The position numbers were made by a program, and so were the translations under genes. A stretch of DNA of 64,000 nt, taken from NCBI GenBank assembly GCA_044892525.1, contig CM097886.1:123442001-123506000 (forward strand), read 5' to 3'. Position 1 is the stretch's first letter, and each line of letters opens with the position of its first letter. This stretch comes from Schmidtea polychroa. Lineage: Eukaryota. This document shows, piece after piece, positions 32,383 to 57,559 of the stretch. The notes beneath the pieces were generated by a model. The model ran no database searches. It saw nothing but the letters and a program-made list of their open reading frames with translations, and had not been told where the DNA came from.

Positions 32383-32599
32383 CCATATATACTCGCGTAT
32401 AAGTCGAGAAATTTACGTCAAATTTTCAAGTCAAAATAGCCACTTCGACTTATACGCGGGTCAAAAAGCGTACAAATTAATTTTTAATGAAATCATTAAA
32501 CCTTTTTTTATTTTTGTTACTTCGACTTATACGCGGGTTCCCAATTTAGGACTTAAAAGCCTCTTAAAATTTACTCGACTTATACGCGAGTATATACGG
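32383..32599. mobile_element. pogo/Tigger-type MITE
   Basis: TIR ccatatatactcgcgtataagtcgag / ctcgacttatacgcgagtatatacgg with TA flanks and two internal cttcgacttatacgcgg repeats. Confidence 0.88.
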
Positions 32600-33573: not shown

Positions 33574-34349
33574 ATGAAACCTGACCCGATTCATTCGAAA
33601 GACAAACTGAATGAAGGAATCTTAAACGATTCTGAATCGAAATTCCCACAAGACTTTTCACTCGGGGGACACAATTTCCGATCGTATTTGTTCGATGTCT
33701 TTTCTAAAAATTCTGTCCCTTCTGGACTGCCACAGTCAATTATGTTAAGATACCTAACTGCACAATTTCAATCGTTTCAAGCGGCGAAATATTTCTCCAA
33801 CAATCATTTTCTAACCCCATCATCTCTTCTTGGTCATCAAGACACGAATTTTCCTCAAAAACTTTTCGAAAACCATTTGTCTTCATCTATTCAAAAGTCC
33901 CCAGAAGGTAGCTCAACAAGTCAAAGAAATCTCCACCGAAACAACTTTAGTCCACTACAAAATCATATTTTATTAGAATGGTACGATAAACACAAACATA
34001 AGCCTTATCCGTCAACAGAGGAAACAAAACACTTGGCGGCCTTGTGTGGCCTTTCATATCCTCAAGTAAGAATTGAACTGAGAAATTATTACAAAATTAT
34101 TTTCTATTCTATTTCAAGGTAAAAAAATGGTTCGCTAATAAAAGAGCTCGATCATCGTTTTATCAAAAGGATGAAATAATATCCTGCCAAACTCAAGCAA
34201 GGTATAACATGCTGAGGTTCCCTTTGCAAATGTCCAATCGACTCAATTCTGAAGTGGTTAAAAGTCTTGAAGCCCAATTTGCCAACAACATAGATAATCT
34301 TGCCTTGGTTTCGAGTTCCAGTCATGACGATTCTGTTATATCTGCGTAA
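33574..34349 (+). CDS. Divergent TALE-class homeobox gene (intron 34066-34118; an upstream exon is possible)
   Basis: RNNFSPLQNHILLEWYDKHKHKPYPSTEETKHLAALCGLSYPQ|VKKWFANKRAR. It has the PYP loop and a 53-bp GT-AG intron at the classic Q|V position. Exon 2 is open for 77 codons. Confidence 0.9.
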
Positions 34350-35478
34350 TTATCCCATGATACATTCTCAGATTTTTTAAATATCTCCTTTGTAACTTTT
34401 CAATTATATCTAACTTAATATTATTTAATAGATCTATTGTNNNNNNNNNNNNNNNNNNNNNNNNNNNNNNNNNNNNNNNNNNNNNNNNNNNNNNNNNNNN
34501 NNNNNNNNNNNNNNNNNNNNNNNNNNNNNNNNNNNNNNNNNNNNNNNNNNNNNNNNNNNNNNNNNNNNNNNNNNNNNNNNNNNNNNNNNNNNNNNNNNNN
34601 NNNNNNNNNNNNNNNNNNNNNNNNNNNNNNNNNNNNNNNNNNNNNNNNNNNNNNNNNNNNNNNNNNNNNNNNNNNNNNNNNNNNNNNNNNNNNNNNNNNN
34701 NAATATTAATGATGGTAAAATTCTGTCATGGAAAATATATACAATGGACCGTGCAAATCATCATCGTTATCAATATCGTAATAATAATAATAATAATTAT
34801 AATTATTATTATTAATATTACTATAATGATGATTATTATTATTATTCTCAGCATCAACAGAATACACTTATCCAACAGTTGTAACGAAGACAAACGCCAA
34901 TGGGATATAAATATTTGAGAACAATAGTCTCGGAAGAGTGATATAATTACTCCATTTGTATCCAAATACTCTGTTAGTCTAGAGTCGTCAGTAGGGAAAG
35001 TTAAGCTCACAAGGAAGAAGGATGCGTATTGAATAGAGCGCAGAGCTTATGATAATTATTGTAGTTGTTTTAATCATATTGTTGTTTTTTCCTTAACATT
35101 TCTATTATCACTTGTTGAATTGTATTAATTGTTTGAATGGCTTCCTGTGTTTATTGGTGGAGCATGAAAACATACTGGGATATGATGTCAACTCATTTGG
35201 CTGGTGTGTAAAGGTGCATGTGGTTTCCTTGGTGGGAGAATTCTATTGTTTCATTCTCAATTGTATTTAATATTCTAGTTTTCTCTGAATCCTCAGATAG
35301 ATTTATGTAACAATTTGCTGTATTCTTCTACAAAAAATTTATTCTCAAAGAACCAATACTGACAATTTTATATTGAAATTGTTTTCATTCTTTCTAATTA
35401 CTGTAATGAGGAGTCTTAGCAAGGATTACCTACGAATAAGGGATGAAGATCGAAAATACTTATTAGGGGAAATATTAT

Positions 35479-35480
<2 letters not shown>

Positions 35481-35560
<80 letters not shown>
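35481..35560. repeat. (AAT)n microsatellite; another AAT/ATT tract at ~34780-34850
   Basis: Direct inspection. Confidence 0.95.
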
Positions 35561-35562
<2 letters not shown>

Positions 35563-37581
35563 GGATTACTTTCACTAGGACCAAAGTTCAGTATAAACAG
35601 AGAAATAGATGAAGCAGCCATCCTCAATTTCAAAACAGCTCTTTGTCGCATTGCGTACCAGATCAAATGGAACAATACAATACCGCATGAAAATGAAAAT
35701 AGCGAAAACCAGCTCCCAGTATACATAAACACAGATAAACTCTATCAACCAAATCCTGATGCAGAATTAGATTCAACACTCTCAAAGGTCTGTCACAAAA
35801 TCATGGAGTTAGTTGAGAAGGAAAGAAGAAAACCATATCTCTCAAACCTTACAAAAGACGAACAGGCAATATTAAAATCCCTTAAAAAGAAACCGTACGT
35901 TTACTTACCAAGTGACAAGGGGGGAGAATTTTGCATTATAGAGAAGAATCGTTACTGTGAAGCTGGTTACGAACACCTCGGCAACATCGAAACATACAAG
36001 AAAGTCAGCCGCATGTCACCAAACACCATCGAAATGAAGATCAACAAAGTATGGAAAGCCATAGCTTTGGAAATGAGGCTCAACAACAGAATAACCAACA
36101 GCTTCGTCACAAAAAATTCTGATCTTCCTAACTTCTACCACCTAATTAAAACTCACAAAGAGGGTCCTGGTATCAAAATTAGACCTATAGTGTCCAACAA
36201 AAATGGACCAACAACTAAAACAAGTTGGCTCCTTGCAAAGATCTTGAAACCTTTATTGGACACGATACCACACCATCTTCAAAGCAGCGACTGCCTCATG
36301 ACAAGACTAAATAATAACATGACTTGCCATAGAGAATTCCAATACCCATTTAGTCTTGATGTCGTATCACTATACACATCTATCGAACCAACAGAGGCTA
36401 TTCAATGTTTAGAAAAGAAATTAAGAGAAAGCAACTTGTTAATAAAGGAAATGAATACCGAGAATATCACCAAACTACTTACTGTTATCCTCGAGAACAC
36501 CTATTTTACCTTTGAACAAAATATCTATAAACAAGTTAAAGGTCTGCCTATGGGTTCTAGCATATCAGGACTGCTAGCAATCATCTTTATGGATAACCTC
36601 GAACGACAGACACTGAGGACCATACAACCCATCGGTTTCTATGCAAGATATGTAGATGATATCTTCATCTTGACCAAAAACAGAAAAGAAGCGGAGGAAA
36701 TATTTCATTCATTCAATGCGGCTCATCAAGATATTAAGTTCGAAATCGAATATCCGGAAGAAGATGGATCCCTCAATTTATTGGATTTGAGAATCAAAAT
36801 AGAAGAAAATACTCCAACATACGGGTTCTACAGAAAACCAGCTCGCAAAGAAATATTTATGCACCAAAGATCAGCGCTTCCATACTTACAGAAAGTACAT
36901 GTCATAAGAAACGAGAAACGAAGAATAGCCAATCGATGCACGGAGAAAAACGAAAACTTTAAAGAGCAATCAAATTTCAATAAAATCCTACACCGAAACG
37001 GATACCAAGGTGAGGACATTGAAAAAATGAATTCTACCCCAAGAAGATCTAGGGAATTAACACAAAAGAATCAGAAATATTTCTATCTGAATATCCCATT
37101 CATCAGTGACATACTCGACTTCAAGATCCTGAAAGAACTTAAACGTACCGGTCTTCCAATTCGGATATCACATAAATCTTGGACATTGAGAAGGGCTCTG
37201 GCAGGCAACATAAATAGAGAAAACAATTGCACAATGAAAAACTGCCAGACACCGAAAGATATGTGCTTTAGAAAAAACATCGTCTATTGCATCACGTGCA
37301 ATGTATGCAATGAAATCTACATTGGAAGTACCCTCAGGACATTGCACCAAAGAGTTAAAGAACATCTAGATCCTGGTGGAACATCCTCGTTGGGCAGACA
37401 TCTCCGGCAGTGTCAGCCAACAGAGGAAAGAAAAAATATTTCAATAGAAATCATAGCTAATGGAAACATCCAAAAGAAAAATGTCAGAATCAAAGAAGCA
37501 ATTCTCATAATAAACAGACAGCCAAAGATCAACACTAAAGAAGAAATCAATGAAATCATGAATTTGATCTGTTGTCATTGA
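35563..37581 (+). mobile_element. Penelope-like retroelement: RT + GIY-YIG endonuclease, uninterrupted ORF, 5' truncated
   Basis: In-frame LLSLGPKF from 35563, PSDKGG, FYHLIKTHK, SLDVVSLYTSI, GLPMGS, RYVDDIF, LNLLDL, and a Cys-rich linker before IVYCITCNVCNEIYIGST..HQRVKEH. Confidence 0.95.
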
Positions 37582-38299
37582 CTTTGAGAATAACTGACAA
37601 TATACAAAGAAATTAAAAAAATAAGAATAAATTAAAAAGTAATAATTAGAATAATATAGAAAAAAATTTTAAAAAATAGGGTTTGAAAATCAAAATTGAC
37701 ACATTTATTGAAATATTTAAATAGCATATATAAGTAGTTATTGGAGGCTTTATTTAAAATATTTTCAAATATTTTATTAGGCTTCTAGAAGCTAATTATA
37801 GAAGCTGTAAAAAAATTTAAAAATTTTAGTTTGTGTCATTTTGAAATTTTAAATGTAAAAATTATAAAAAAATTTTAAAAGTTTTTAGTAAAACAATTCA
37901 TTATATTTACAACCAATGAGAATTAAGAGAAAGGAAATAAAAGAAAGATTGAAGGGTATTTTGAAGAAGAACATTGCTAAATTCCAGGAGATTGACAAGG
38001 ACTATCGTATAGTCGAAAATTCTTTCATTAAATACATTATTTGCAGCAAAAGGCTTANNNNNNNNNNNNNNNNNNNNNNNNNNNNNNNNNNNNNNNNNNN
38101 NNNNNNNNNNNNNNNNNNNNNNNNNNNNNNNNNNNNNNNNNNNNNNNNNNNNNNNNNNNNNNNNNNNNNNNNNNNNNNNNNNNNNNNNNNNNNNNNNNNN
38201 NNNNNNNNNNNNNNNNNNNNAAAGAATCGGAACGCACGAAACGCATTGTTTGAAAATCTCATTGTAGTTTCTTGATTTACATTATATCTTTTTGACAAC

Positions 38300-39200: not shown

Positions 39201-39800
39201 ATTCTGCAACAACGAATTCTTATTTATAAATATTTGCTAAAACACCTATCATAATATTTTTATCGGTTCTAGGACAAAATGTCGTGGACAAAATGTCAAC
39301 ATTGAAAAAACAAATAGTAAAACGATAGTAAAATATAAACAATAGTAAAATCTATTATTTTTGTTGCCGAAATTTTGACCCCGACAATTTGACCAATGAC
39401 ATTTTTATCCCCTGTTAAAACAACTTTTTCTTCTTTTAAATGTGCAGCAGATTTTCGGTTTTTGAATATCTTTCTCAGCCAAGTTTAATTTTGAGAAGTT
39501 GATATTTGAATTTCATGAACGTTTCCAATTTGTTTCCAACTGTTTTCCAATCCATTTTTGGTTGAAGTAAATTCGGTTGATGTTAAAATTCAGCAAGAAT
39601 TACTGAAACTTCAAAACGATTTGTTGGCTACGCAGGCATTTTTATAAGATAGGAGCAATCTTTTAAAAATTTACTTAACTGAAACGAGTTATCCAAATAT
39701 AAGAAATAATTTCCTTATTTGGTGGTAACATATAATTGTAAATGTTTTTTTCTGGATAAAAAAATTGAATTGAATTTTTTTTACATAAAAACAAATTTAT

Positions 39801-40180
39801 TCAAAGAACAAAATCATTTTCCTGGTTATTTATAACCACCATCAATTTCTTTAAGCTGTGTTTCATTGGTAGTTCTTTGAGAGTTTCTTCTTGTATATTT
39901 TTAATCTGTTCGGTTTCGATAATTTCACTGAATTCGAGTGTGATTACGTCTGTTTCTGCTCTCGATAGTGTATCTGCTGCAATGTTTACTGCTCCTACGA
40001 CGTAGTCGATTGTACAATTGATTTGCGAAATGTAATTCAATCGTCTTATTTGCCTTTGGGATGGGTTTTTCATTTGTATTGCATTTGTTTGTGGTTAATG
40101 GTCCGTAAGGATTTAGAAGTTTCAGTCTTCCAGTAAGTGTTGGAAGTGTTTTATGGCATCATGTATTGCAAGGATTTCTC
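39801..40180 (-). pseudogene. Ty3/Gypsy RNase H remnant (a second element)
   Basis: FDREILAIHDAIKHFQHLLE..ILTDH.P and SQRQIRRLNYISQ..IDYVVGAVNIAADTLSR. Confidence 0.85.
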
Positions 40181-40962: not shown

Positions 40963-42822
40963 ATATTCAATTTATTAACTTTTATTAATTAATTAATTTT
41001 TTTTGTTAACATATTATAATGATGAAATTTTGATTATCTCACATTTTTTATACATCCTAACTACCACTAAGCTTTTTGTCAGGACTAAACGCTTTTAATG
41101 GGAATAAATTGGGTTGATATGCTATATACCAAAACAAAAGACTAATAGTACTGGTATGTACCAACATATCCATCGAATTCTCGATGTCTTTTCATCATTT
41201 TCAAATATAAAAAATATTTTTGAGTAATAAAAACATAAAAAGTTCGAAAATGTATTCTCATTTCCCTTAAAAAAATACGCCAGAAAAGGATTCAATCAGG
41301 TATGAAGTAAAATACAAAATAAATAAAAATTTCTTGAAAAAAAAGGATACTATTTTTACACAAAAAGAAGAAAAAGAAAAAAAGAGAAGTGGAAGAAAAG
41401 AAAAGAGTAAAAAGATAAATGGAAAGTGAAAAAATATAAAAATATCAAGATTAAGGCACGAAATGAAAAACTGCGCAAATGGAAAACTGCACATGATACT
41501 TGACTGGGACACATATGTCCCGATATACTCCTAAGGTTAATTCAAATACATAGAAAAGATTTTTGAAAAATAAGTAGGTCAACTGACAAATTTTGAAAAT
41601 ATTTAGAAAAAATATTGAAAATTATGTGGGTCAAATCGACTTTAAAAGTAAAGATCAGTAACTCAAAGTTGATTATTGAGAGTTTCTGACAGTGTAATTT
41701 GACTATCAATGGCTAATTTCAAAGGATTTTCCTCAGAGTTTCCGAATGCCTATTATGGTGATCCAAGGTAATAAAGGGTATTACAAGGGTCATTTTGAAT
41801 GTTTATATGAATGGTCAAAACCAATAAATATTGATATATGCACGCGCAAGTACACTCTTAATAAAAAGATATATTTTAAATTATTCATGTCTTTGTTAAT
41901 CATGCAACTGTATTTATTCTGATTCGATTGGCTAAACGTGTTATAAATAGACATTTAAAATAATCATTTCTAAATCCTATTATAAAAATGTGACAAAACG
42001 AACTGTTTAACCATAATCAGAAAAATCATATCATCAATAGCCTCCAATACTTGGTGAAGCGCACAGAGAATATAATAACTCCTGTAATATCAATTAATTC
42101 TAAATCTAGAAAGATATGAGCAAATAAACTCGAATAGTCGTTGGTTTTGTCTACATGAAAAATATTATTCTTAAATCCAGCTCCGACTATGAAAATTATT
42201 TCCAATTGTCTGTAGAAGCATAATATTTTATTTTTTAATTGTTATTATTAATATTATTAAAGATTTATTGACTACTACATATACAATCGTAATTCCCACA
42301 ATTTTCTCTCATAATATTTTCTACAATACATTAGTAATAATAAATACTGATTATCAGCACCGCCTCTAGTGATACTAGCACCCCGATGCAAGTTTCTTTT
42401 TAGCGCCCTTTATAAAAAATATATCAAAAAACTCAAAATTAAACATTTTTTTTCAATTGTAATTAACAGATATCAATTATACATAAAATCAATTGCACGA
42501 TAGTTAATTCAAAATTTTATTTTTCTTGCTTTTATCGAAGCAAATTCATCCAAAATATCATTAATTTTGATTTCATCGCAGATATCGCTTTTAATAGTAA
42601 TCATTTCCAACCCAACTAATCTCTCTTGAGAAATACTTAATCGCAAATATCTTAATCAGTTTATGTCTAGAAAATGATTTTTGGTCACTAGCTACAGAAA
42701 CTGGTAGAGTTAATAGTATCCGCAAAGATAGTGAAGAAAAAAGACAAATAAAAGCGTGATCATGCACAGAATTGATAGTAAAGGAAAGTACGATGGAAGC
42801 AGTATTAGGAAATTGCAAAAGC

Positions 42823-43781
42823 AGTTACGAAAGGAAATCCGAGAAAAATCAATAAATTGTAAAATCATCGAAATCGAATTGGGAAAACCGGACAGGTATA
42901 GATTAGCAAATGGTCAACAAAATGATGATTAGGGATTTATCAGAAAATGGTTAGGTAGGCTCGAAAAGCATTCAAATGTGTAAAAACAGAAAACATTAAT
43001 TAATTAATTAATTGGCTAATAGAAAACCCGAGCTAGTGGGAAACCTGAGCCAATAGAGAACCCTAGATATAAAGGAAACCCGAGCTGGGTAAACAAGAAG
43101 AAAAGTAAACAGAAGGAAGATTTGGGCCCATTAGCTTGACACAATGATTAATTGGAAAAGAACAAGGAGAAGAAAGTACGTGTAGAAAGGCCGGACGGGC
43201 CATTAATTATCTTTGTTCGTTGGACCATTATTGGTGACAGCCGAAGCAGATACGATGAAGCAAATTTCAAGTGAGAGATTGGCTCGGCAATAACCATTTG
43301 TCATCCAGATTTCGAAGAGTATATAAGGAAGGGGAAAATTAGACCAAATCGGCATTTTGTCTCAGCTAGGGTTAGAAGAAATCGAGCTTAGGAGAAGGTA
43401 AAAACGAATTTAGGAGATTAGGGAAAAAGAAGAGATAGAATAAAAATAAAAAGAGTGAAAAAGGATCAAATCAAAGAGAAAAAGGAAAACGTTGGTCAAG
43501 AGAACCTAAGGAAATAAAAGGTGAATATTATCTTTATCAAAGCATCAATACCGAGCGGAGAATCGGTCAAACTCGAACTGTTGGACTATTTATTATTGAT
43601 TGTGTATTATTGAGAGAAAATATATTTTGATTTCAATATACGTTGGGTCGTTTATTGTTTTGATTTAAACTTTAAAAAATTCCTTTAAATCTTCTAATAA
43701 TAACCTTTAATAGTATCCTTTAAATTTTAAAGGACACGAGGAGTCAGAGGTAACCAACTTAAATTAACTGAAAACCCAACA
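42823..43781 (+). repeat. 5' LTR (left boundary approximate)
   Basis: Ends ...aacccaaCA 7 nt before the PBS. TATA-like gtatataag at ~43318 and AATAAA at ~43439 and ~43512. The start (a)GTTACG resembles TGTTACG. Confidence 0.6.
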
Positions 43782-43788
43782 TATATTC

Positions 43789-43805
43789 TGGTGAGCCGAC
43801 GTGAT
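43789..43805 (+). promoter_or_regulatory. Primer-binding site, tRNA-Trp
   Basis: TGGTGAGCCGACGTGAT versus the canonical tRNA-Trp PBS TGGTGACCCCGACGTGAT (one gap, one mismatch). Confidence 0.8.
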
Positions 43806-44022
43806 CCAAAGTCGGCGGAGAATTATTGAAAGTTATTGGAAAAATATTTGGAAAAACAATACAGAAGTAATTGAAGGTCGGCTGAGAATTATTGAAAATT
43901 ACTGGAAAATTTGTTGGAAAATAGTGCTGACGAGATAGATATTAAAGGTTATTATTAGAAGATTTAAAGGAATTTGTAAAGTAAATTTAAATTATTGTTT
44001 AACGTTTGAAGTTTAGCTCAAA

Positions 44023-45544
44023 GTGAATCAATACAACCTCAGAAGTCAAAAACAAGTCCAAATGGCAAATGATGATGCTGTTATGCCTCTCAATCGAGAG
44101 ATGATTGATTTCGCAAGATGCCGGAAATTACCCGTCAATCAATATGGAGGAGACCCTGTTGAATTCGCAGATTTCATTGGAGATTATTATATGTATGCCT
44201 CAGCATACGGATGGACACAAGCCATTATGGTTCAGAGATTCCCACTCTATTTGAAGGGTGCAGCAAGGGAAACCTGGCAACAAGTAGATAAACGAAACGT
44301 TGGTAATGATTGGTCCAAATTGAAGGATGCAATGGCACTGAAACTGGTTGGTGGAGATATCAAAAGAATCATGAGACAGAAATTCTATAATCGAGTTGAA
44401 GGTTCAGATGAATCGGTCAGTGAGTTTGCTTATCATCTGACCACTTTAGCAGATAAAGCCTTTGAAGTCAAACCAGATCAAGTAGATATGGCCAAGCAGA
44501 TTAAAGAGTTGTTGGAATATCAGTTTATAACCGAAGTCCACTCCGAAATCAAAAAGGCCCTATGTTATGTTGATTTTTCTAATTTCGATGAGCTCGTGAA
44601 GAAAGCCATGAAGATCGAGCTGAATTTGAAAAGTGCAAAAAGATCAGATACTTTTGGAGTAAATGTGGAGAGACATGAGGGGTCAATTACTCCTGTGAAA
44701 GCATCATGGGATGAAAAGAAAATAAACCAAATCAGTAGTCCGATTTTGAGACCAAATAATAGATTTCAAGCCAGTAGATCAGCCATGAACGTGCAATCAA
44801 ATGGACAGGTAAAAACCCTCAGTGCGAACATTGCCAAAAGTCCGGACACTACTCAAATCAATGTTGGTTCGAATTGGGAAAAATCCTAGCCCTAAAAAGA
44901 GATTCACAGATAACAAAAGGATCAACAGTGATGTCGAATGCTATCGATGTGGAAAGAAAGGGCATATTAGCAGAAACTGTTTCACTAGATCAAGGTCATC
45001 GTCAACGTCACCTTCACCACAAAGGGACAAAGTGAATACCAATGGACAAATACAATGCCATACGTGCAAGGGATACGGTCATATGGCGCGACCATGCCCA
45101 AGGAACTCAGAAAGATTTAGCATACCTATATTAAAGAAATCGATTAGGTTCCATGAAGATATGCCAAATACCAGTAATATGACATAGGCGCAGAGAGAGG
45201 AATTTCAAGACAAAATGGAAAAGAAATTTCGAGAAATGCGACAGAAGTTGAACAAATTAGTGGCTAAATTCGAATCAAACGAGGAAACTGAATCTCATAT
45301 GATAATTGGAACCGTGTCAGAAGGTGAGGAAAAACCCACCACGAAAGTGAGAAAAATCGTATCAGATGAGAATCCGACGGCATTGTTAGCCCGAGTTGAA
45401 AGATGGCTTGCAAGAATGGAAACTGACAACTCCCAGTTGAAACGATGGATCGCAGAACTCAGTTTGATGTCACTAACCCAGAGTGAATTAAAAAGAGCAA
45501 TAAATTTATGTGTAAAGCTAATTCAAAGTACACAGAGACGATGA
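44023..45544 (+). pseudogene. gag: Gag with two CCHC zinc knuckles and a coiled-coil extension (frameshift near 44880, stop at ~45185)
   Basis: YNLRS N-terminal motif, capsid-like YGGDPVEF..F..Y...A..YGW..FPLYLKGAARETW, and knuckles CYRCGKKGHISRNC and CHTCKGYGHMARPC. Confidence 0.9.
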
Positions 45545-45605
45545 GATACTTAAACAAATGCAGAAGTTTGGCAAGGCTTTACGGTCAACAAAGGATTTAG
45601 CTGAT

Positions 45606-45815
45606 ATCATAGTGGAAACGACTGGACTTGATAATGTGAAGTGCCAATTCCGTGTAAATGCATACGGACAAATCAGAGAGCTAAAGGAGCGAATACTGCG
45701 TCAATACAGTGGATGACAAGTGCAATTAAAATTTGAGAATCGATTTCTGGAAGACGAAGAGTACTTAGTAGATTGCGGTCTGATACCAGGCTGGAAAAAT
45801 AAAGTAAATGTCGTT
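45606..45815 (+). pseudogene. Ubiquitin-like domain 1 (not in the ORF track; internal TGA at 45714)
   Basis: IIVETTGLDNVKCQFRVNAYGQIRELKERILRQYSG*QVQLKFENRFLEDEEYLVDCGLIPGWKNKVNVV aligns with ubiquitin IFVKT..TI..VKAKI..LIFAGKQLED..TLSDY.I. Confidence 0.7.
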
Positions 45816-45851
45816 AATGCAGTCACTACTTTTAATTCAGGTAGACAGAAT

Positions 45852-46098
45852 TGGGAAAAGATTCTAGCAGATTTACAAGACACTGTATGCAGGGAATAAA
45901 GATAAAATTAATGCGAGTATCGACTTCATAATGAGCAATGAAATGGATCGAGAAATGAAAGAAGGGTTGTTTGAATGCATCGTACCGTATACGAATAAAC
46001 CGACAAGTTATCAAGCAAAGTTAAAAGAAGTAATCCGAAAACTAGGACATGATTATGGGTGGCAGACAATAGTGCGAAGTCTTTGTTACAAGCGTTGA
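45852..46098 (+). pseudogene. Possible CARD/death-fold helical domain
   Basis: WEKILADLQDTV/GNKDKINASIDFIMSNEMDREMKEGLFECIVPYTNKPTSYQAKLKEVIRKLGHDYGWQTIVRSL, assembled across one frameshift. The pattern resembles CARD D-x-L-L-S-x-E-L...R-x-L-x-D-L-x-x-[RK]G. Confidence 0.35.
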
Positions 46099-46290
46099 AT
46101 ATTGCGGATCAAAGGATTGAATATTATCAGGAACATTGGAGTGTAAAAGCAAAGAAAATACGACAAAAAGCAGCGGAGATATTAGGTAATGAAGGAATTA
46201 TCGTGTTGACGTTCAAAGGACGAGAATTAGATGATGACGAATATTTATTGAATTACGGATGTAACCCAAATTGCATTAATAATGTATACG
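46095..46290 (+). pseudogene. Ubiquitin-like domain 2
   Basis: AKKIRQKAAEILGNEGIIVLTFKGRELDDDEYLLNYGCNPNCINNV is paralogous to UBL1 (LxFxxRxL[ED]D[ED]EYLx[DN]xGxxPxxxNxV). Confidence 0.7.
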
Positions 46291-46635
46291 CAGCAAAGCA
46301 AAGTGATAATGCCGTTTTGCCCTCCGTATGAGGAAACGGACAATGATAACGTAGAGACAATGGAGATTAAAACTGAAGTTGTAGATGACCCATGATAAAT
46401 TGATCAGGAAATTAATGAATGGCAGAGTTTGGAAACACTGAAAAATAATGAAATGGGATCGGAAAATGTAGCTAAAAGGGATATCGAGGAAATGAGCACC
46501 GATAACAGGGTATTACCAAGTATAAATAAAACGAAAAGTGAAGAGAACTTCGTTGAAACGGAAAATGACATTGCGATATGTCGGAAACGACAAAATGATG
46601 CGGAAACTGAATCTTTGAGTTTAGATGAATCAAGC

Positions 46636-47016
46636 GAAACTGAGCGAGTATTAAAAAGTTTAATTGCGGAATTGTACTTGTTCGATGAAACTGAAACAAA
46701 AAGAGATGATACTTCGGAGGAGGAGGAAAGAGTTGTAAAGAAATTAGCAACGGAATTACAAAGGAGATTACCGTCGATAATTAAAACAAATAATGAAGAA
46801 AAGGAATTTTGTGAGGAAGCAGTAATTGAGGAGCTAACACGAACCGCGTTGGATCGAGATGTAATATTGACAGTGCTAGCCTATATAATATTGGAGATCG
46901 GTATTTATGGTTGTTTAGAAGCTGACAATTCAAAATCGTTAATAAAGAAAGCCACTGAAATGACGAATAAATATTTGATGAAGTGGATTGCAAACAATGG
47001 CGGATGGGAAAATTTG
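46636..47016 (+). CDS. Bcl-2-family domain within ORF 46429-47226
   Basis: BH3-like VKKLATELQRR, BH1-like EAVIEELTRTALDRDVILTVLAY (NWGR lost) and a strong BH2, KYLMKWIANNGGWENL. Confidence 0.8.
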
Positions 47017-47067
47017 ATACAAAAGACGGAGAGCCCAAAAACAGAGACAGTAAGGGAAAAGGGAAAA

Positions 47068-49083
47068 CTCGCATTTCCATGGTTGATGATCTCTATTATT
47101 ATGTTATTGGGAATAATAAACACGACGAATTCATTGGTGGCATACGGCTGCTCCCAAACCGAAATGGGAAGAGTATATTCGTTGGTAAACGTAGCAGTGT
47201 TCAGATGCATACCCAGTAAAGTTTAAAGTGACAAATCCAGTAAAATATCATGTATATCAAGAATCTGGGTTTCGACGAGCAAAGGTGAGAGAGTATACAG
47301 TCAAACGAACTACTTTTGTATTTTATTGTGGAAAATGGAGCCACTCATTGATGGTGAAAATGCAATCGATACCTAGACCGATTGAGATAATTCCAGAAAA
47401 TTGCCTGGCAGCCTTTCGAACGGGACAGCTGAAAATCAATGCCGATATTAAATTGTAAGCAAAGCTAAACCACAAAATCCGTGAGACTGTAACCGTGAAA
47501 GGGATAATAAAGTCGAATGGTGATTGCCAAGGAGAACCATACAAAATAGCGATGCGATAATTGACCAAGCCGTTGTTGTGGAAGAGTACATGTCGGAACT
47601 AAGTTAGTTTGATGGATCATTCGATGATGATACGTGTAAACTACAGACACATCCATTCTGCAACATGAAACAATCTAGGTGACAGACAGTAGAATCAATC
47701 TTGGTGTACCATGTCGATACAATACGGTTCAATTTAGTGCAATTAAAGTCAATGTGTTTTAAAGAAATAACGGGAGAGCAGATCAGGGAAAAGCCTGAGA
47801 AGATAAGAATGGATCCAGCAACGAATACAACAACAAGAATCACACCTCTACGGATGAAAGATACTTCAACAGTATTAATGTCAACCTCAACAGAAGATGG
47901 GATGAGATTCCTGAGAAAAGAAACTAAAACAAAGTGTGGACAAAGTGTCTATGAGACAAATTATATGTATCTCAGAAGGTGATTACAGAGTCTCAAACAA
48001 ATATAGATGCCGGAGATATTAAGTTGACAAATTACTTTAATAACAAAATAGATTATTTGTTTCATTTTGGTCAAAATACCGTTGAAAATGTGTACCGAGA
48101 AGTTATTATAAATGATTGCAATCTCAAAAAAGAAATACTCCGAAATCGGATGCCAATGGCTAAAACCAATCCTAATTTGATAGCACCATTGTCAATTACA
48201 GAAAATGGGGTGTTTGCCAGAATTTTCGGTGAAGCACTATATAGCTATAAATGTAAAGCGGTACCAGTTAAACTAACAAAGTACGACCAATGCACCAACA
48301 AGTTACCAGTAAATTTAAATGGAAAGTTGCGATTTATGGAGCCTATGACACGAATCTTACTGGAAGAGGACGTGAAACCGAAAGTATTACAGTGCAATAG
48401 ATTGTTGGCACCACTATACAGACTAACACCAGAATCTTGGATTGCATTGCCAGATCATCGAGAAGTGAAGACACCGGAAAATTTAGAATTGACAGAATTA
48501 CAATATCTGGTGAATTTTACGTCGTTAGAAAAATTGTCGCAAAGTGGAATTTACTCGAGCGAAGACATTGAGGAAGCTCGCAGAAAATTGTTATTTCCGT
48601 CGAAGAAGGAAAGAGTAATAATGGAAATGGTAGATACAATTCTCCCAAGCGGAAGTGGGTAGGTAAATTACGAGTATTTGTTAACTCCAGATCATTTCAA
48701 GAAAGCGATGTAATACACAATGAAAAAGATCTGGTGAAAATTTATGTTCATTGGACAAACCGTGCGCCGGATTGATTGGAATTTATGTAATATGTGTTGT
48801 AATCAAAGTAATAATATCGCAGGTCCTTTCAACACACAGGTTATACGCGATCTCAGGTTGGTCGTGGAAACTAGTAATTGTTTGCATACCATTATTGGCC
48901 AGATTCTTCATTGCTCATCATCAATATCAGGAGTTGGAGATACTCAAGGCGCGAATATTAAAGAAGAAAAAGGTGAGCTTCGCTAGTATAACCCCTTCAA
49001 GGGACGAGAATAATGACAATGACAACGAGGGTGATAGTGCACCGTTATATGTAGATAATCAAGAACTAAAGTGGAGTAAATAA
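47068..49083 (+). pseudogene. env: Class III fusion (chuvirus/herpes gB-like) envelope glycoprotein, fragmented
   Basis: Hydrophobic leader then AYGC..YSLVNV..C, YCGKWSHS, GDCQG, CGQSVYET, DC.LKKEIL, GEALYSYKCKAVPV..CTNKLPV, P.TRIL, C....P.Y, SGIYSSEDIEE.R..LLFP, and a TM followed by LY.ISGWSWKL. Confidence 0.8.
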
Positions 49084-49339
49084 AGAAGCGTTAAGAACCT
49101 ATCAAATCTTAAAATAGCCACTGTTGAATGCGAGTAGCGTAGACACGTTTACAAAATTGTGTATACCAAAATCATTTATGCAATCAGCACCAGTTTATCC
49201 AGTTGATCGATTACGAGAAATGAAATCAGTCGAAAATATCGCATTACAATGTGAAAGAATGGCAGGAGAGAGAGTCGAGTCTTCTAGTGCGGAGATCGAG
49301 AGAAAGAATATGTTAGGCTTACCATGCAATTACTCATTG

Positions 49340-49642
49340 ATGACATTAACAAAAAGAGGAAAACAACCCCGAATATTTATACAAATGAACAAACATAAAG
49401 TGGAAGCTTTGGTTGATTCGGGATTTAGTCACACAATAATATCGGAAAATGTATTAAACGCGAAGGAAAGAATGCGAATAAAGCCTACCGACGAAATAGT
49501 TAGATCATTATCAAAAAACGAATTAAACATAATTGGACAACTTAACGTCGTATTCCATATTGGAGATCGAATAATAGCTCACGATGCGCTCATAATGAAG
49601 GGACGTCCAGCACAATGTCTGATCGGCATGGATATATTATAG
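49340..49642 (+). pseudogene. Retropepsin aspartic protease
   Basis: VEALVDSGFSHTIIS...CLIGMDIL. Confidence 0.9.
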
Positions 49643-50149
49643 CAGCTGGACGGAATCTCACTTGATTTAAAGACAGGTAATTTGATAGCAGGAGAAACAG
49701 GAGAAATAATTCACAGGACAGGTGAAGTGTTTTTGAATCAGACATTAACAATACCACCACAATCGGAGATGGTCTACTGTGCAAATACCATGAGTGTGGA
49801 TAATGGCGATTTTATATTTGAACCAAATCAAACGCTAATCGAAAAATATGATCTACCGATATGTGACGAAATTATCAAAGTGGAAAATCAGTACCAGTCC
49901 ATATACTAATAGCAGTAAGAAACCGGTTCAGCTACACCCAAAAACAAAATTGGGAAAGTTATCAAAAATGTCTATTGAAACAAATTGCAAAATTCCAAGA
50001 AACGTCAAGGTGTATAAAGAGCCTGAAGTGGTAAGCAATGATTTAAATGAGATACAGAAAAAGGAATTCACAAAACTATTGAGAAAATACCGAGACATCT
50101 TTGCCAAACATGAATATGATTTGGGTTTAACCAATGTAATTGAGCATGA

Positions 50150-51400
50150 AATACCGTTATAAGACGAAACTCCAATTAAAATAAAGCCATACAGAATCCC
50201 TCCCCTACGTTCATCAAGATGAAAGTGATAGACAGATTACAGCAATGAAGGAATTTGGAATAATTCGAGATAGTGCGTCACCATTCTTCTCATCAATAGT
50301 GATAGTTAAGAAAAAAGATGGAGACTTACGATTTTTCGTAGAATATCGGAAGCTAAATCAAGTTACGAGGAAAGATACTTATCCTATTCCGGTACCTCAA
50401 GAAATGTTCGATCAAATGGGAGAGGCACGATATTTCACAGTTATTGATTTAAACAAAGGGTACAATCAATTTAGAGTAAAAGAGGAAGATAGAGGAAAGA
50501 CGGCGTTCTCTGATGGCAAAGGATTATATGAATTCAACGTGTTACTATTTGGATTAACAGGAGCCCCAGCTACATTCCAACGAGGAATGAATTATGTGTT
50601 ACGAGGTATTCGACATGCATTGGTGTATATCGACGATATAATAATATTTTCAAATGATTTTGAAGAACACCTCAAAGATGTAGAAACCGTATTTAAACGG
50701 CTCAAAAATGCAAAATTAAAAATCAAACCATCGAAATGTGAATGGGGCAAAGCAGAAGTAGTTTATGTCGGACATATAATATCACGGCGAGGGTTACAAA
50801 CTAATCCAGATAACATCAAAAAAGTGGAAGAGTACCCAGTATCGAAAGATGCCGATGAGGTCAGACAATTTTTAGGTTTGGCTAGCTATTACAGAAAATT
50901 TATAAAAGATTTCTCTCATATCACTCAACCATTGAATACGTTACTAAAGAAAAACAATAAATTTATTTGAGGATAAATGCAACAAAGCGCTTTCAATACA
51001 TTAAAAGAGAAATTAGTGACAACTCCCATATTACGATATCCAGATTTTACGAAACAATTTATCTTGATGACGAATGCAAGCAATGTTGCATTGGACGCGG
51101 TGTTGGGCCAAAAATTTGAAGGTGAAAAGGACAACATAATAGCATACGCAAGCACATCACTGAGATCTCATGAGAAAAACTACTCAACTATTGAAAAGGA
51201 AATGTTAGCGTTAGTGTATGGAATTACTACTTTTAGACAATATTTATTGGGCAGAAAATTTACACAGAGATTCAACCAGTAAGTTAATTCGATGGTCGAT
51301 TGCCCTCCAAGAATACGATTTTGAGATTAAATATCGGACAGGTAAAGCTAACGCAAATGCAGATGCAATGTCAAGAATCACAGAAAATGATAGGGAAGGA
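50150..51400 (+). pseudogene. pol: Reverse transcriptase + RNase H (disrupted)
   Basis: PIKIKPYRIP, SPFFSSIVIVKKKDG.LRF.VEYRKLN, DLNKGYNQ, FGLTGAPATFQR, YIDD, FLGLASYYRKFI, then TNASN..L.AVL.Q, YSTIEKEMLA and IKYRTGKANANADAMSR. Confidence 0.95.
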
Positions 51401-51441
51401 ACACCTGAAAAATTGGAAGGTACTATATTCGCTGCAATGAT

Positions 51442-52650
51442 ATGTCTGAACTACAAAATGATCAGGAAAACGATAGTGAATTAAAACAATTTATGGAACA
51501 AGCGGTTAAGATAAGAAAAGAACAAGATTGGAAACGACTCACAGATGCAAACAGCAGATATGTAATTCATAATGGAATACTTAAGTGTTGGATAAATGGC
51601 GAAGCGTTAATTATTATCCCAGCCAAGTACAGAGACGCATTACTGATGCAGTATCATGACGGAGCCTTGGGAGGTCATTTGTCAACGCGCAAGACGCTAT
51701 CAAGATTAAAACTGAAATACTTTTGGCCAACAATGGAACAAGACGTGAAAAATTGGTGTAGCAGTTGTAAAGTATGCATCACTCGCAGAAATACTGGTAA
51801 AAAGATCAAAGTACCATTAAAACCGATGCCAGTACCTGCAGCACCGATGGAGATGACGGCAATGGATATTCTGGAACCATTACCGGAAACAACAAAAGGA
51901 AACAAATACATTGTTGTTTTTTGCGACTATTTTACTAAATGGCCGGAAGCATACGCTATTCCAAACCAAAAAGCAGACACGATTGCTAGAATATTTGTGG
52001 AAAACATAATATTTCGCTATGGTACTCCAAAGAAATTGCTAACTGATCAAGAGAAGAACTTTCAAAGCGAAATGTTTAAATCAATCACAGACCTATTTGG
52101 GATTTGGAAATTGAATACTTCATCATATCATCCACAAACTGATGGATTAGTGGAACGATTTAATGGGACACTGATAAATATGATCTCATCATATGTGAAT
52201 CGAAAACAGAAAGATTGGGACGACTTCATTAAGCCGTGTCTATTTGCCTACAGAAATGCAGTAAATCAAAGTACAGGTGAAACCCCTTTTTATTTGATGT
52301 ATTTAAAGAAAAATAATATGCTGATTGATCTCAAATTCCGATCACCAATTTCACAATATATGGAGATACCCGAATATAAGGCATTGATGCAAGAAAGAAT
52401 GCAATCAGTATGGACTAAAGCCGGTTTGACAATAAAGCACAACCAAGAGAAATATAAAGAAGCCTACGATAAAAAAGTACATGCGCATGGCATAAAGATC
52501 GGAGATCTAGTATATCTTAACAGACCGGAACCTCTCAAAAAGCTATCACCGAAATTACAAAGACCATTTAAAGGACCATACAAAGTGTGCGACACCACCG
52601 AAACCAATTTAAATTGTTTCCATTCAGAAGTAAAAAGGCTAACCCAATGA
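51442..52650 (+). CDS. Integrase (HHCC, DDE, GPY/F)
   Basis: YHDGALGGH...WCSSCKVC, TAMDIL, LTDQ, TDGLVERFN, FKGPYKV. Confidence 0.95.
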   Translation: MSELQNDQENDSELKQFMEQAVKIRKEQDWKRLTDANSRYVIHNGILKCWINGEALIIIPAKYRDALLMQYHDGALGGHLSTRKTLSRLKLKYFWPTMEQDVKNWCSSCKVCITRRNTGKKIKVPLKPMPVPAAPMEMTAMDILEPLPETTKGNKYIVVFCDYFTKWPEAYAIPNQKADTIARIFVENIIFRYGTPKKLLTDQEKNFQSEMFKSITDLFGIWKLNTSSYHPQTDGLVERFNGTLINMISSYVNRKQKDWDDFIKPCLFAYRNAVNQSTGETPFYLMYLKKNNMLIDLKFRSPISQYMEIPEYKALMQERMQSVWTKAGLTIKHNQEKYKEAYDKKVHAHGIKIGDLVYLNRPEPLKKLSPKLQRPFKGPYKVCDTTETNLNCFHSEVKRLTQ

Positions 52651-52806
52651 TTGTCCAAAATTGAAACAGAAATTCCCAAAAAATCCAACACCAGTCAGCT
52701 ACATCAATAAAGTATTATATGTGACAACAATGCTGATGTAAGTAACAGTTGCGAGCGGCAAAAGGATTGATTTGCCATATGCGGTAAACAAAATCCAGGG
52801 AATGGA

Positions 52807-52859
<53 letters not shown>

Positions 52860-52860
<1 letters not shown>

Positions 52861-53875
52861 CACTCTAACAAATATTGTATGGAGTTGTGTATGCAAGATT
52901 ACAGACCAAATAGGAATTATTAATTTATTGGACAATACGGCACCAGTTGTAGAACTGAATTATGATAGAGATGTATTAGCGGCACGAAGTTTAAAGCCAA
53001 ATTTCAAATACCAATGGCTGTTGAGACAGAACATGTCAAAGTGGTACACGCAAATTTCGATAGAAGTGCAGACAAAAGAGATACGAAACTTGATCGAAAT
53101 AGAACCAGTAATAAATGGAATCAATATATATTGGAAGCCAGTGGACTTGGTGAAAGTGCGAATCACATTTCAAGGATTAAATGTCGACACCCTGAACTCA
53201 CGAAAATCATTTGTCCGTTATGAGAAATTGGAAATGAATCAGAATTATACAATCAGTGCAAACTACTACGAGAACATATGCCTCGACAATGGAACGGTAG
53301 TGAGAAACCAATGGTCACGGTTTAAGAGTGAGACCCAGTCCATCTATCTCAGAAACGAGACAAATCGTATAACCTTGAGTGTTGGAAATGGATCGGTAAC
53401 AATATATCGAAAATCAGGAAATGATGAAAGAGTTGTTATTAACTACAAACAGAGAACCCTGACTATATTAGATGCCGGTATTCATTTTTTTACAATTTAC
53501 ACTTCTGATTTAGAGATGGTATGGGAAATAACAGTTAAATATCAGCGTTGGATGACCGAACCAGGCAGATGGCAAACAATTTTCGTGGAAGTCAAAGCGA
53601 TCAACGAACCGAAACAAACGTTGTATACGACGACATCACCTTTCCAATTACCAACCCAAAGAACGACAAAACCTTTTATTAACACAAATAAACTAATGAT
53701 GACGGATTTGGATTTGACAGTCAACCATTGTGATTATCTCATTTACATTCTAATAACAGGTTTTCTCATTTTGTCAATAACATTCATAACTATCACCATC
53801 TTGATATGTGTAAAAAAGAGACAACTGACTATCCTTCAACCACCATCATATTCATATTATGAAACAAAACTATAA
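52860..53875 (+). CDS. Type I membrane protein with FN3-like ectodomain, Thr-rich stalk, TM and short tail (N-terminus obscured by a (TA)n tract)
   Basis: EIRNL.EIEP.INGINIYWKP...YEKLEMNQNYTISA (FN3-like), sequons NMS/NYT/NGT/NET/NGS, TM YLIYILITGFLILSITFITITILICV followed by KKR, and tail LQPPSYSYYETKL-stop. Confidence 0.65.
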
Positions 53876-54052
53876 ATTTGTGATCTGCATGCTATAAATA
53901 ATGTATAAATATATAACATTATATCGACAAAGTGCATGTTTTATGAGTATCATAGTATGAGCTGTGCGATTTGTTTGATAGGATTCAAGGCAAGGTGTTT
54001 GATGCTTTGCGAAGGAAGAGTGATAAAACTGATTATCATTTAATTTTAGACA

Positions 54053-54289
54053 ATGCAAGACGCCTCGGAAATGTCGTGCAAAGAGTGCAGAACGAATACA
54101 CAAGAATTGAAGCGGAATTTTCGAAGTATGTATGGTAGAATAACAGATTTGGAGGAAGAAAACTTCCATCTAAGAAAGCGGTTGGATCGCATGGAGATTT
54201 TATTATTTCAACATGAAGCGGACTTTATAATGTTTCGGATGAAAGTAGGAGTGTCGGAGGAATCGGAGGATGAGGGTGAGATCAATTAA
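54053..54289 (+). CDS. Small coiled-coil accessory ORF (CxxC, acidic tail)
   Basis: MSCKEC..ITDLEEENFHLRKRLDRME..EESEDEGE. ATG start preceded by a pyrimidine-rich tttag acceptor-like sequence. Confidence 0.45.
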   Translation: MQDASEMSCKECRTNTQELKRNFRSMYGRITDLEEENFHLRKRLDRMEILLFQHEADFIMFRMKVGVSEESEDEGEIN

Positions 54290-56021
54290 TTGGATTAAAT
54301 AAATTATGTGAACGGACCCTTGTTTTTTTTCGTCCTCGGAAAAATAGATAAAGTTAATGTATAAGTAAATAAATAAATAAAAAAATAGATGAATTAATAA
54401 AGAAAAAAGTTAATGTATAAGTAAATAAATAAACAAACAAATAGATGAATTAAATAACTAAAAAGACAAATAAATGAATAAATAATTGAGTAAATTCAGC
54501 AAATAAATAAAGTAAAATGAGCAAAAAAAATAAAAAAAAATAAATTAATTAATTAAATAAAATGAATGTTATAAATAAATGACTACTAATTGATAAATAA
54601 AGTAATAAATAAATTACTGACTAGTAATTGACTGAGTAGTAATTGATAAATAAATTAACATAACTAAATGACCATGAGTAACCTACTGGGGCTAGAGAAT
54701 AAAATTATAACCAATAATTATTAGTAAATAGGATTTTGGACACCGCAGTCCCATTCCTTGCGCACATTGCAAGGTGGGCGTCTCTCGAACCTACTGGACG
54801 TATCCACGCAGGCGAAGGTGCGTTTTAGGCCCTGTCGACGTAGTGGCAAAGGGACGCAGAAAAATGAAAATAAAAACCTGTTAGAATATCAGTAAACTAA
54901 CCATTTCACAACATCCAGATATTCAAACTTGGGTGCCGTAACAACCTAAATTAGTAATAGTTGAAAAATGAAATAAAGTAAAGCCTATATAAAAGTCCGT
55001 ACCATGGCGCCCCCGATATATGGTTAGTTGCAGAGAAATAGTATATGATAGTGTGAACAACCAGAAAGTAGATCTTTAAGAATTACGTAATACTAAATTA
55101 AAACAAAATTCATATTACCCGAAAAAATTAAAACAAGCGCAATCATTAACAGATAAAGGGTAGGTGTAATTAAAGGTTTGCTCTTATTGTAAAAATAAAT
55201 CTATACAAAACGGAAAATTGAAAGTAGATATCCCAAAACATGAGTGTAGGATAGGCAGTTACATAAGCAAAATAATAAATTAAATAAGTTAAAAGTAAAT
55301 AATTTCGTTTAATAAGCAACTACGAGCATTTGCAATCACCGTGGTTTGGCTACCCTGGACAGTGATTGCAAATGTTCGGTTGCTATGAGGGAATACAATA
55401 TGAATAACTAATAATTGAGGACAGCATAGTAAAAATTTAAAAGAATCACTTACGTCCATATTATTGAAAGATAATATTACTGGAAAAAAAGTAAGACAAA
55501 AATAAAATATAAAATTCTTACTTGAAGATTGAAAAAGCAAAACTAATGAGAAGCGGTAATAAGGAAACTTATATAGGGCGCTTATCAGTATTATAATCTA
55601 AACGGTGTACATTAAAAAAAAGCAGGGTAATTAATTATAAAACATTTCATCTAGATATCCGAAATATTAATGATTATCGCAGATAGGCCAGTATGAACAC
55701 TTGTCAACTTTATCAGGCGGATAGATAAAAGTGGCATATTGGCTTCTGAAACACCGACAAAAAGGATTGTTGATACTTGTTCCCAGTAATTACTCAAATT
55801 TTTCGTCAAAATCTGAAAAGCAGAAATACTTATTTGTTTACTGGTAAACTTCCTAAAATGATCACTAATGCGGGTCAATTCATTCCGTCGCAAATGCTTA
55901 AGAACTCGAGTGCAGAGATGATGGGCAGTCTCTCCAATGTATGTGGCATTACACCTATAATATGAAAATTGATACACGAGTTCTGAACACAGATCAACTG
56001 GAGTTGGAGACTTATTAGTGA

Positions 56022-57559
56022 TGTTGGGTATATTGTAGTTGGTCAGTGATTATTAAACTGCCAATTACTGATCCAACTCCAAGCGTATTTTTTAATAACG
56101 ACAATGATAAGTCCCAACCACGTAAAACTTTATTGATTAGTTACAACAACAATTGTGATTAATTGTCGATTTTCGCGTCTGTGTGCGCTTTGTACTGGGT
56201 TTTGGAATCTTTTGTGTGCGCACACAGACGCGGACAATTGTGAAGATTGTCGAGATTAGTTTTTTGGATCGATTTCTGGATAGTATCGGTTTTAGATTGT
56301 TTTAAAAAGGAGTTTTGATCGAGTTGAATTTTGGTTTCGAGTTGTTTTCGAATTTTTGAATTCCTGTCCTGTTGGGAAAATATAGGACTTTGATATTATT
56401 CGTTATAACTCAATGGAAAATAATGATGATGCCTTGAATGCTTTTCATATTATTCGTTATAACTCAATGGAAAATAATGATGATGCCTTGAATGTTTCTC
56501 ATATTATTCGTCATGTTCCTGTTGGACATACTACAAACGAAACTGACGGTTTTATGACTCCAAGAGATCCTGATAACTTTAATAGTGTTTTTGGCCAACT
56601 AATATCAAATTTATTTGGTGGATTGCTGCCGCAGGATTTTAGATCCGATTCGTCAGATTACATATTTTCAGATCAAAGTTTTGACAAGTGTGTAACGAGT
56701 ATTAAGAATCAATTTGAACAAAGTGGTCCTCCACTAGCAAATGAGGCAGATATTGAGATATTACAAGTCAAGAAAATCACCGCAGCTAATGATACAGGTT
56801 TCATTTGTCTGCCAGATTATGAGGTGGCCGATGAAGTGCACGAGTTGCTCCGTCGAGGAACGCGGACGATTATACTAAGAACCAAGCTTCAAAGGACAAT
56901 TAAACAAATTGGCTACAACAATTCAACGATACCTATTTTCAATACACTTCAAATGTTTCAGATTCTTATAATAAACTTTTGGGAGGAATAGCACAATAAT
57001 GACAATACTCTAAAGACACAACCACCTGACTACTGCCGGTAACGGGCGATTCGCTAAATTGATCTGATTGCCTTTAACTTGATTTGAGTTTCTAAATTAC
57101 TTCTGGTTTATTAATTCAATACGCAAGCTTCTTCCAAATCCTTCCTGGTTCTCAACAATTTATTTTAAATCTCCTCGTAAATTCAAATTTCTCACAAATT
57201 TTCCTTCTAGCAAATGTTCTCTCTTTTCGTCTCAAATTTTTCTCGTCTCTGGTAATATGTGTTCAGTTTTTATACCTTGTCATTTGATGGCACTTATTGA
57301 TAATTCATTCCTTTTTTCACCTGTTCCAATGGGCACTCCGTAATATCTGACAGCTATCGATATATATATATATGACCTTTTTTATTAATTTGTCTGTTTT
57401 TATTGATTTTCTTCTGTTTCTTTCTCATTTTGCAATATCTCTCTTCCACTCCTATTTCACTGAGTTTCGTAACAACACCCTATTTATTTATCATCATTTC
57501 CCCAATCATTTTACACATTTAATAATTATTTTTATTTTATTATTTAAGTACCCTCAACA
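56022..57559. mobile_element. Solo LTR (1538 bp)
   Basis: TGTTGGGTA...TACCCTCAACA termini and a 4-bp TSD gtga/atga. Removing it restores the Penelope reading frame (SMF|TNKSP). Confidence 0.82.
56413..56991 (+). pseudogene. RNF126/RNF115-like E3 ligase fragment inside the solo LTR (RING truncated)
   Basis: SDYIFSDQSFDKCVTSIKNQFEQSGPPLANEADIEILQVKKIT..FICLPDYEVADEVHEL matches the family pattern GDY.W.Q.GLD.IITQLLNQFE.TGPPPA..E.I..LP...CPVC..DY..GE.V..LPC. A 54-bp tandem duplication lies at ~56394-56501. Confidence 0.65.

Follow-up and report, generated by a model that had tools for sequence, protein, structure and literature searches.

A decayed Ty3/gypsy copy and its domains

The window analysed here is a 64,000-nucleotide stretch of the Schmidtea polychroa genome (GCA_044892525.1, contig CM097886.1, positions 123,442,001 to 123,506,000 of the forward strand), and coordinates below are counted from its first letter. 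On its + strand, from 42,724 to 55,776 as judged by homology to other copies, lies an old, broken and 3'-truncated copy of a Ty3/gypsy long terminal repeat (LTR) element; an earlier note, made by a model from the letters alone, had given the span as 42,823 to 54,289. The family encodes an envelope between gag and pol and a second membrane protein after the integrase in a single polyprotein, which probably builds an enveloped particle with two surface proteins. Reading all six frames against Pfam recovered, on the + strand, the gag family PF03732 with zinc knuckles, low-scoring matches to ubiquitin and Bcl-2, the envelope family PF24664 in three pieces, protease, reverse transcriptase (RT), RNase H and integrase. 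A frame of 377 codons that includes a membrane anchor comes next, and then a small open reading frame (ORF). The order proposed in the earlier note (LTR, tRNA-Trp primer site, gag, ubiquitin-like domains, Bcl-2, glycoprotein, protease, RT, RNase H, integrase, a membrane-anchored fibronectin type III (FN3) protein and a small coiled-coil ORF, all on one strand) held up under Pfam, profile, fold and tRNA calls.

The copy begins with a 5' LTR remnant (42,724–43,781), which lacks its first ~62 bp and ends in CA; the LTRs of other copies measure 1,057–1,071 bp. A primer-binding site for host tRNA-Trp(CCA) follows (43,789–43,805), one base shorter than the 18-nt match of two young copies. These are all that remains of the set of LTRs, primer site, purine tract and target duplication: neither the 3' LTR nor the rest of the missing 3' part was found elsewhere in the window, in the 20 kb downstream or in the 10 kb upstream. 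The copy is ~90–92% identical to young copies. Set against natural open frames, it changes frame at least 15 times and has more than 10 stops in frame, and therefore encodes no working polyprotein. Gag (44,062–45,367), itself broken by frame changes, has a capsid domain (PF03732, E 2.5e-8), CCHC knuckles (PF00098, E 4.5e-10), of which there are three rather than the two previously counted, and a coiled coil.

The region from gag to Bcl-2 consists of two copies of one module, in which a ubiquitin-like (Ubl) domain comes after a helical domain of ~80 residues. They occupy 45,368–45,825, where the helical domain is of no known family, and 45,826–46,302, and the C-terminal GG is missing from both Ubl domains. 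A phmmer search of the PDB with the Ubl–Bcl-2–envelope frame gave 0 matches, and profiles, built with three sister families of the same genome, were needed. The module profile found solely ubiquitin-fold chains among the 60 matches listed of 340 (single-domain ISG15, E 1e-5), which bears out the two Ubl domains of the earlier note. The helical part of the second module had been called CARD-like, an identity that gained no support; no CARD occurred among the 21 PDB matches at E up to 10 for the helical-part profile, or in Pfam. The segment has a related helical counterpart in the first module, and both stand directly ahead of a Ubl domain. A single-sequence AlphaFold2 model of the two Ubl modules, with a predicted local distance difference test score (pLDDT) of 35.5, was left unused. 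The same module occurs in the public proteins P0005 and P0006. Both of these also have the envelope, with two and three protease domains respectively, and P0006 has C2H2 fingers as well.

An acidic linker, recognised from its sequence (46,303–46,629), leads into the Bcl-2-like domain (46,630–47,067). Pfam PF00452 matches it at E 0.009 here and 1.8e-5 in a sister family, and the profile returned only Bcl-2 family chains among the 60 PDB matches listed of 104, the best being Bfl-1/A1 (E 7e-5). Directly behind it, hydropathy marks hydrophobic helix 1 (47,068–47,133), conserved in the sisters, a predicted tail anchor of the Bcl-2 fold that would double as the signal sequence of the envelope, with cleavage presumed. 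The earlier assignment to Bcl-2 therefore stands for the fold and its C-terminal anchor, but not for the BH1 motif. BH2 (WIxxNGGW) is retained; BH1 NWGR has become DRDV in the window's family, without the Gly-Arg pair, and TRGK or TKGK in two sisters. Owing to this replacement, canonical BH3 binding by the family's Bcl-2 domain is doubtful. With the CARD unrecovered and the Gly-Arg pair gone, the case for suppression of host-cell death is weaker than the earlier note stated.

The envelope (47,134–48,950, in pieces, with a membrane anchor near 48,760–48,820) is a Monjiviricetes/gB-type fusion glycoprotein, as had been supposed; PF24664 matches at E 1e-43 for the best of the three pieces, and at 2.6e-69 where the frame is open. 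All families examined retain a gB-type fusogen of full length, and the description of the element as infectious and enveloped is a reasonable inference from this conservation. Pol comprises an aspartic protease (49,379–49,642; PF13975, E 2.4e-8), RT with RNase H (50,060–51,400; PF00078, E 1.8e-32; PF17919, E 1.4e-32) and an integrase (51,436–52,655; PF17921 and PF00665), whose transition into the following protein is disrupted in the window copy. Between protease and RT (49,700–49,990) is a domain conserved in four families, at the position of the dUTPase-like domain of the planarian Burro elements discussed below; it gave no match in the PDB, and a dUTPase-like identity was not recovered. Profiles thus recovered the Ubl and Bcl-2 folds, and Pfam the glycoprotein.

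Copies of the family and constraint on its domains

The family is a young, multi-hundred-copy planarian Ty3/gypsy. Three family probes gave 322–362 candidates each in the 781-Mb genome, 40 of which were scored per probe; for the Bcl-2 stretch (322 candidates) all 40 scored were matches, with 89–95% identity apart from the window itself. The hallmarks of Metaviridae are present, namely the order protease–RT–RNase H–integrase and a gag with CCHC knuckles (Pfam). Full-length elements measure 15.0–17.8 kb and have a purine tract, TG...CA LTR pairs (in six) and 4-bp target duplications (6/6). In two young copies the primer site matches 18/18 bases of the host tRNA-Trp(CCA) gene plus CCA. From about 55.02 Mb of G000:C4 onward (locus L151), tRNA-Trp(CCA) genes form a tandem array that repeats every 284 bp, and 4/4 repeats in this locus were called tRNA-Trp. 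The 17-base primer-site pattern has 862 matches in the genome, and most of those listed fall in this array.

Searching the genome with PF24664 gave 2,581 candidates, and eight of the 68 scored sit in 3,334-codon frames. In each of the five long-frame copies that were fetched, a single frame opens in gag and closes with the second membrane protein's tail, which takes the long polyprotein, ascribed by the earlier note to an ancestor, into existing copies. Both LTRs lie inside the fetched stretch for four of the five (1,057–1,064 bp, 99.5–100% identical), and the LTR pairs of two older copies are 98.4% and 93.0% identical. One copy has an antisense frame of 223 codons in its 3' region; this frame was rejected as a gene, having no Pfam match and being absent from four young copies.

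The cassette from the Ubl part into the envelope is also a trait of the family. It is present in 13 of the 19 other loci that have the Bcl-2 stretch, it is in frame in the long-frame copies, and it occurs in three divergent sisters and in a giant relative. The earlier note had named a one-off nested insertion as the finding that would refute its view. That the cassette at 45.4–49.1 kb is such an insertion, or host sequence captured by the window copy alone, is refuted by these occurrences; no point was found in favour of this alternative, and we give it practically no chance.

Constraint was estimated from pairwise ratios of nonsynonymous to synonymous substitution (dN/dS), calculated without a significance test and mainly between the window copy and a young copy. 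The ratio is below 1 for every domain: 0.12 for gag, 0.17 for the helical and Ubl modules, 0.28 for Bcl-2, 0.16 for the envelope (range 0.11–0.16), 0.10 for RT–RNase H, 0.07 for integrase, 0.37 for the FN3 ectodomain and 0.14 for the small ORF. These pairwise values show every domain, the second membrane protein included, to be under purifying selection.

The membrane protein after the integrase and the features downstream

In the window copy, a run of (TA)n near 52,809–52,858 interrupts the second membrane protein (52,700–53,875, membrane anchor 53,735–53,812). Of 14 other copies, 11 have an integrase that reads unbroken into this protein; five copies had been picked for their long frames, and among the nine not chosen in this way the count is six. 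It is the C-terminal end of the polyprotein and not the separate ORF of the earlier note. Its layout is a predicted signal helix, three beta-sandwich repeats, a Ser/Thr-rich stalk, an anchor and a 20-aa tail, which in the window has PPSY and ends in ETKL, a class I PDZ-binding motif (C-terminal [ST]-x-[LV]). A nine-row AlphaFold2 model of the ectodomain has pLDDT 59–78 over residues 101–190. The modelled middle repeat resembles FN3 domains (Z 8–9, root-mean-square deviation 2–3 Å over 75–83 residues, most of the top 50 matches being FN3), and Foldseek concurs (E about 1e-3). The FN3 fold of the earlier note is accordingly predicted for the middle repeat only. Ectodomain profiles gave nothing meaningful in the PDB, and a search of 1.84 billion representatives returned one match, P0008.

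Each of the seven lineages examined, among them a giant Burro-type element of the same genome, has a membrane protein at the same place after the integrase; in the giant element, signal, ectodomain, anchor and PDZ tail recur. The ectodomain is exchangeable, with three repeats in the window's family, two in a sister (inside 3,366–3,369-codon frames, 5 of 146 scored) and in the giant element a Cys-rich domain, which the FN3 profiles did not match. Six of the seven lineages have a class I PDZ-binding motif at the end of the polyprotein, on tails that cannot be aligned; the background of such ends is 37/730 frame ends (5%). In the window's family the terminus is ETRL or ETKL in 20 of 25 distinct copies (35 loci minus duplicates), and other lineages end in MSQL (10/10), MTTL, ETWV, ATLV and VTQV. 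No description of a post-integrase membrane protein was found in the literature searched, which did not extend to subscription journals or Repbase; this clade-wide protein, with its swappable ectodomain and PDZ-type tail, is the part of the element not found in print. In the sister family the second membrane protein is followed by an accessory ORF of 734 codons (L088:4514–6718, minus strand), with an N-terminal hydrophobic stretch, motifs that look DEDD exonuclease-like by eye and no Pfam match.

Further downstream, the small ORF (54,053–54,289) encodes 78 aa here and about 81 aa in other copies, with a CxxC, a coiled coil and an acidic tail. Its dN/dS ranges over 0.14–0.40, and it is preceded by a splice-acceptor-like TTTCAG in 13 of the 15 loci shown; for a selected ORF with such a sequence before it, a spliced or trans-spliced RNA is plausible. 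Contigs from runs only guessed to be RNA are counted as no evidence: they cover gag to the small ORF (10,588 nt, X7; 9,136 nt, X14), and no GT..AG joint into the small ORF was seen among the rows listed. The start of a long AT-rich 3' non-coding region then occupies 54,290–55,776, where homology to other copies stops.

Exactly at this end begins an unrelated dispersed repeat (55,777–56,020), also present in loci L159 and L166, with a GIY-YIG-like fragment, identified by eye, on its minus strand. A 201-codon + strand frame at 56,386–56,991 resembles by eye the end of a RING-H2 ubiquitin ligase and contains a 54-bp tandem duplication; a similar stretch in L153 suggests that it may be a dispersed retrocopy. 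Upstream of the element, long inverted repeats 7.8 kb apart (30,036–38,207) probably mark a DNA transposon, the 99% identity of whose arms is unreliable because they are partly N-masked. A short RNase H/integrase-like fragment of another gypsy element was recognised by eye on the minus strand at 39,800–40,160.

Burro relatives and the predicted particle

Much of this layout is already published. The planarian element Burro1/GYPSM1 has been described as one 4,873-aa polyprotein in an element of >30 kb, with gag, three knuckles, MATH, Ubi2/SUMO-like and BCL-2 domains, an env read in frame between gag and pol, and protease, dUTPase-like, RT, RNase H and integrase domains, to which motifs of the BIR and ankyrin types are added (Arkhipova and Yushenova, 2019, PMC6431247, which cites Grohme, 2018 and Jurka, 2007). 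The same authors proposed that Burro elements are proviruses interfering with apoptosis and ubiquitination. This description confirms the link to Burro elements with extra domains that the earlier note had drawn, and thereby removes most of the novelty: a layout with Ubl, Bcl-2 and env placed between gag and pol was published in 2019. The window's family shares the polyprotein with gag, three CCHC knuckles, Ubl, BCL-2, in-frame env, protease, RT, RNase H and integrase. It differs in size (15–18 kb and 3,334 codons), in having two helical and Ubl modules and in lacking MATH, BIR, TRAF and ankyrin, and is not the Burro1/GYPSM1 family proper. The post-integrase membrane protein goes unmentioned in that review. 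BURRO1 RNA, from a family other than the window's, has been reported in tissues under PIWI control (PMC8532177), and the available parts of PMC11410931, PMC12440569 and PMC13238120 hold nothing further on the element.

The giant Burro-type element, identified by its domain content rather than by comparison with the Repbase entry, bears MATH, ankyrin and BIR and has a frame of 4,791 codons. In an integrase tree of 16 rows with a midpoint root it groups with the window's family (100/99 support, 55% identity), and four other gypsy integrases fall outside. Judged by this grouping and by the in-frame env after Ubl and BCL-2, the window's family belongs to the Burro clade. The giant element (L164–L165, L168–L169) also has separate downstream ORFs, one TRAF-like (zinc fingers and MATH) and one IAP-like (BIR and RING), and ankyrin repeats between its integrase and second membrane protein.

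The family has, in addition, been catalogued. A supplement to Chary and Hayashi (eLife, 2026, PMC13524379) lists Smed_errantivirus_2 with 215 copies, a gB-type env and the order GAG-ENV-POL. The window's family is alike in order, HSV/gB-type envelope and high copy number, and the window frame 47,228–47,455 agrees with the published env row at 71 of 75 residues, compared by eye; on these env residues, order and copy number, the two are the same family. The rows seen in the supplement give no LTRs and a tRNA type of 'none', whereas the window's family has LTRs and a tRNA-Trp site. The main text, so far as available, lacks the terms 'Bcl', 'ubiquitin', 'apoptosis' and 'fibronectin'.

We propose, with a probability of roughly 0.6, that the polyprotein of this Burro-clade family threads the membrane four times and builds an enveloped particle with two surface proteins. 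Hydropathy gives four alternating membrane helices, of which the first three follow Bcl-2, env and integrase and the last precedes the tail, and alternating hydrophobic helices are also found in two sisters, the giant Burro-type element and the unrelated public protein P0006. Gag, the two helical and Ubl modules and the Bcl-2 fold would stay in the cytosol, with helix 1 anchoring the Bcl-2 domain and serving as signal for the fusogen; env would lie in the lumen, and its anchor would bring protease, RT, RNase H and integrase back to the cytosol. Helix 3 would be the signal for the FN3 protein, also lumenal, whose anchor would leave the only free C-terminus of the polyprotein in the cytosol. Signal peptidase and the element's own protease may cut the chain, as in flavivirus-type polyproteins, and small residues before the conserved starts of env and the FN3 protein would fit signal-peptidase sites. 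The gB-type protein would then fuse membranes, and the FN3 protein would act in attachment or targeting, its tail binding host PDZ scaffolds and fixing the site of budding, with PPSY perhaps engaging Nedd4-type ligases. The anchored Bcl-2 fold and the Ubl modules may blunt host death or stress signalling or help assembly, in the window's family probably not via the canonical BH3 groove.

Several points weigh against this proposal. Topology and cleavage are predicted from hydropathy only, and particles, fusion and cell-to-cell transfer are themselves predictions. The ectodomain model has a mean pLDDT of 49.8 and is reliable only at residues ~100–190, and sequence profiles of the ectodomain gave no FN3, the best Pfam fn3 match (E 0.19) being in a sister. 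P0006 has no PDZ motif and 5/25 distinct copies of the window's family have lost it; the seven lineages are related, so their motif counts are not independent. Bcl-2 is the least constrained cargo, with dN/dS of 0.52–0.53 in three other comparisons, and the domain was not detected in P0005 or P0006.

The membrane proteins might instead serve an intracellular retrotransposon, tethering polyprotein or particles to a membrane, fusing neighbouring cells or acting as surface decoys, with the PDZ tail only localising the product. All genetic evidence here is of selection and not of infectivity, and with a single frame Gag, Env and Pol must be made in equal amounts, which is unusual for budding viruses. 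Against such a life cycle stands the full-length gB-type fusogen, conserved with dN/dS near 0.1–0.16 and kept in all families examined, and we regard the intracellular life cycle as unlikely. A different possibility, entertained tentatively, is that particles are made and the cargo serves their assembly, the Bcl-2 fold being a matrix-like membrane tether for Gag and the Ubl modules recruiting proteasome or ESCRT. Several features suit this role: the modules are placed after Gag and ahead of the first membrane helix, the window's family has lost BH1 NWGR, no CARD was found, and neither Ubl domain has a C-terminal GG. Against it, sister families retain a BH1 Gly-Lys, and the BIR-RING, TRAF and MATH proteins of the giant relative point to death or immune signalling as a clade-wide target.

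The particle with two surface proteins can be extended, as a speculation that we think may well prove wrong, to Burro-clade elements being retroviruses in all but name. A gB-type fusogen and an exchangeable attachment protein would come from one polyprotein, the PDZ tail would aim budding at polarity scaffolds for passage from somatic into planarian stem or germ cells, and the Bcl-2 fold would keep the producer cell alive. The headline layout published in 2019 limits the surprise of the window element. Since a model animal harbours the family in many young copies, infectious enveloped gypsy particles outside insects are directly testable, and the second membrane protein offers a handle on which host scaffold is bound and in which cells. 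If the proposal is true, this protein is the retroelement counterpart of viral attachment proteins.

Some enveloped viruses enter cells with a pair of proteins, one for fusion and one for attachment, and some viral glycoproteins, e.g. rabies G, have a PDZ-binding tail. Unlike in such entry systems, both proteins of the window's family come from one retroelement polyprotein. Like them, the family combines a fusogen with a second type I membrane protein, in this case one that ends in [ST]-x-[LV].

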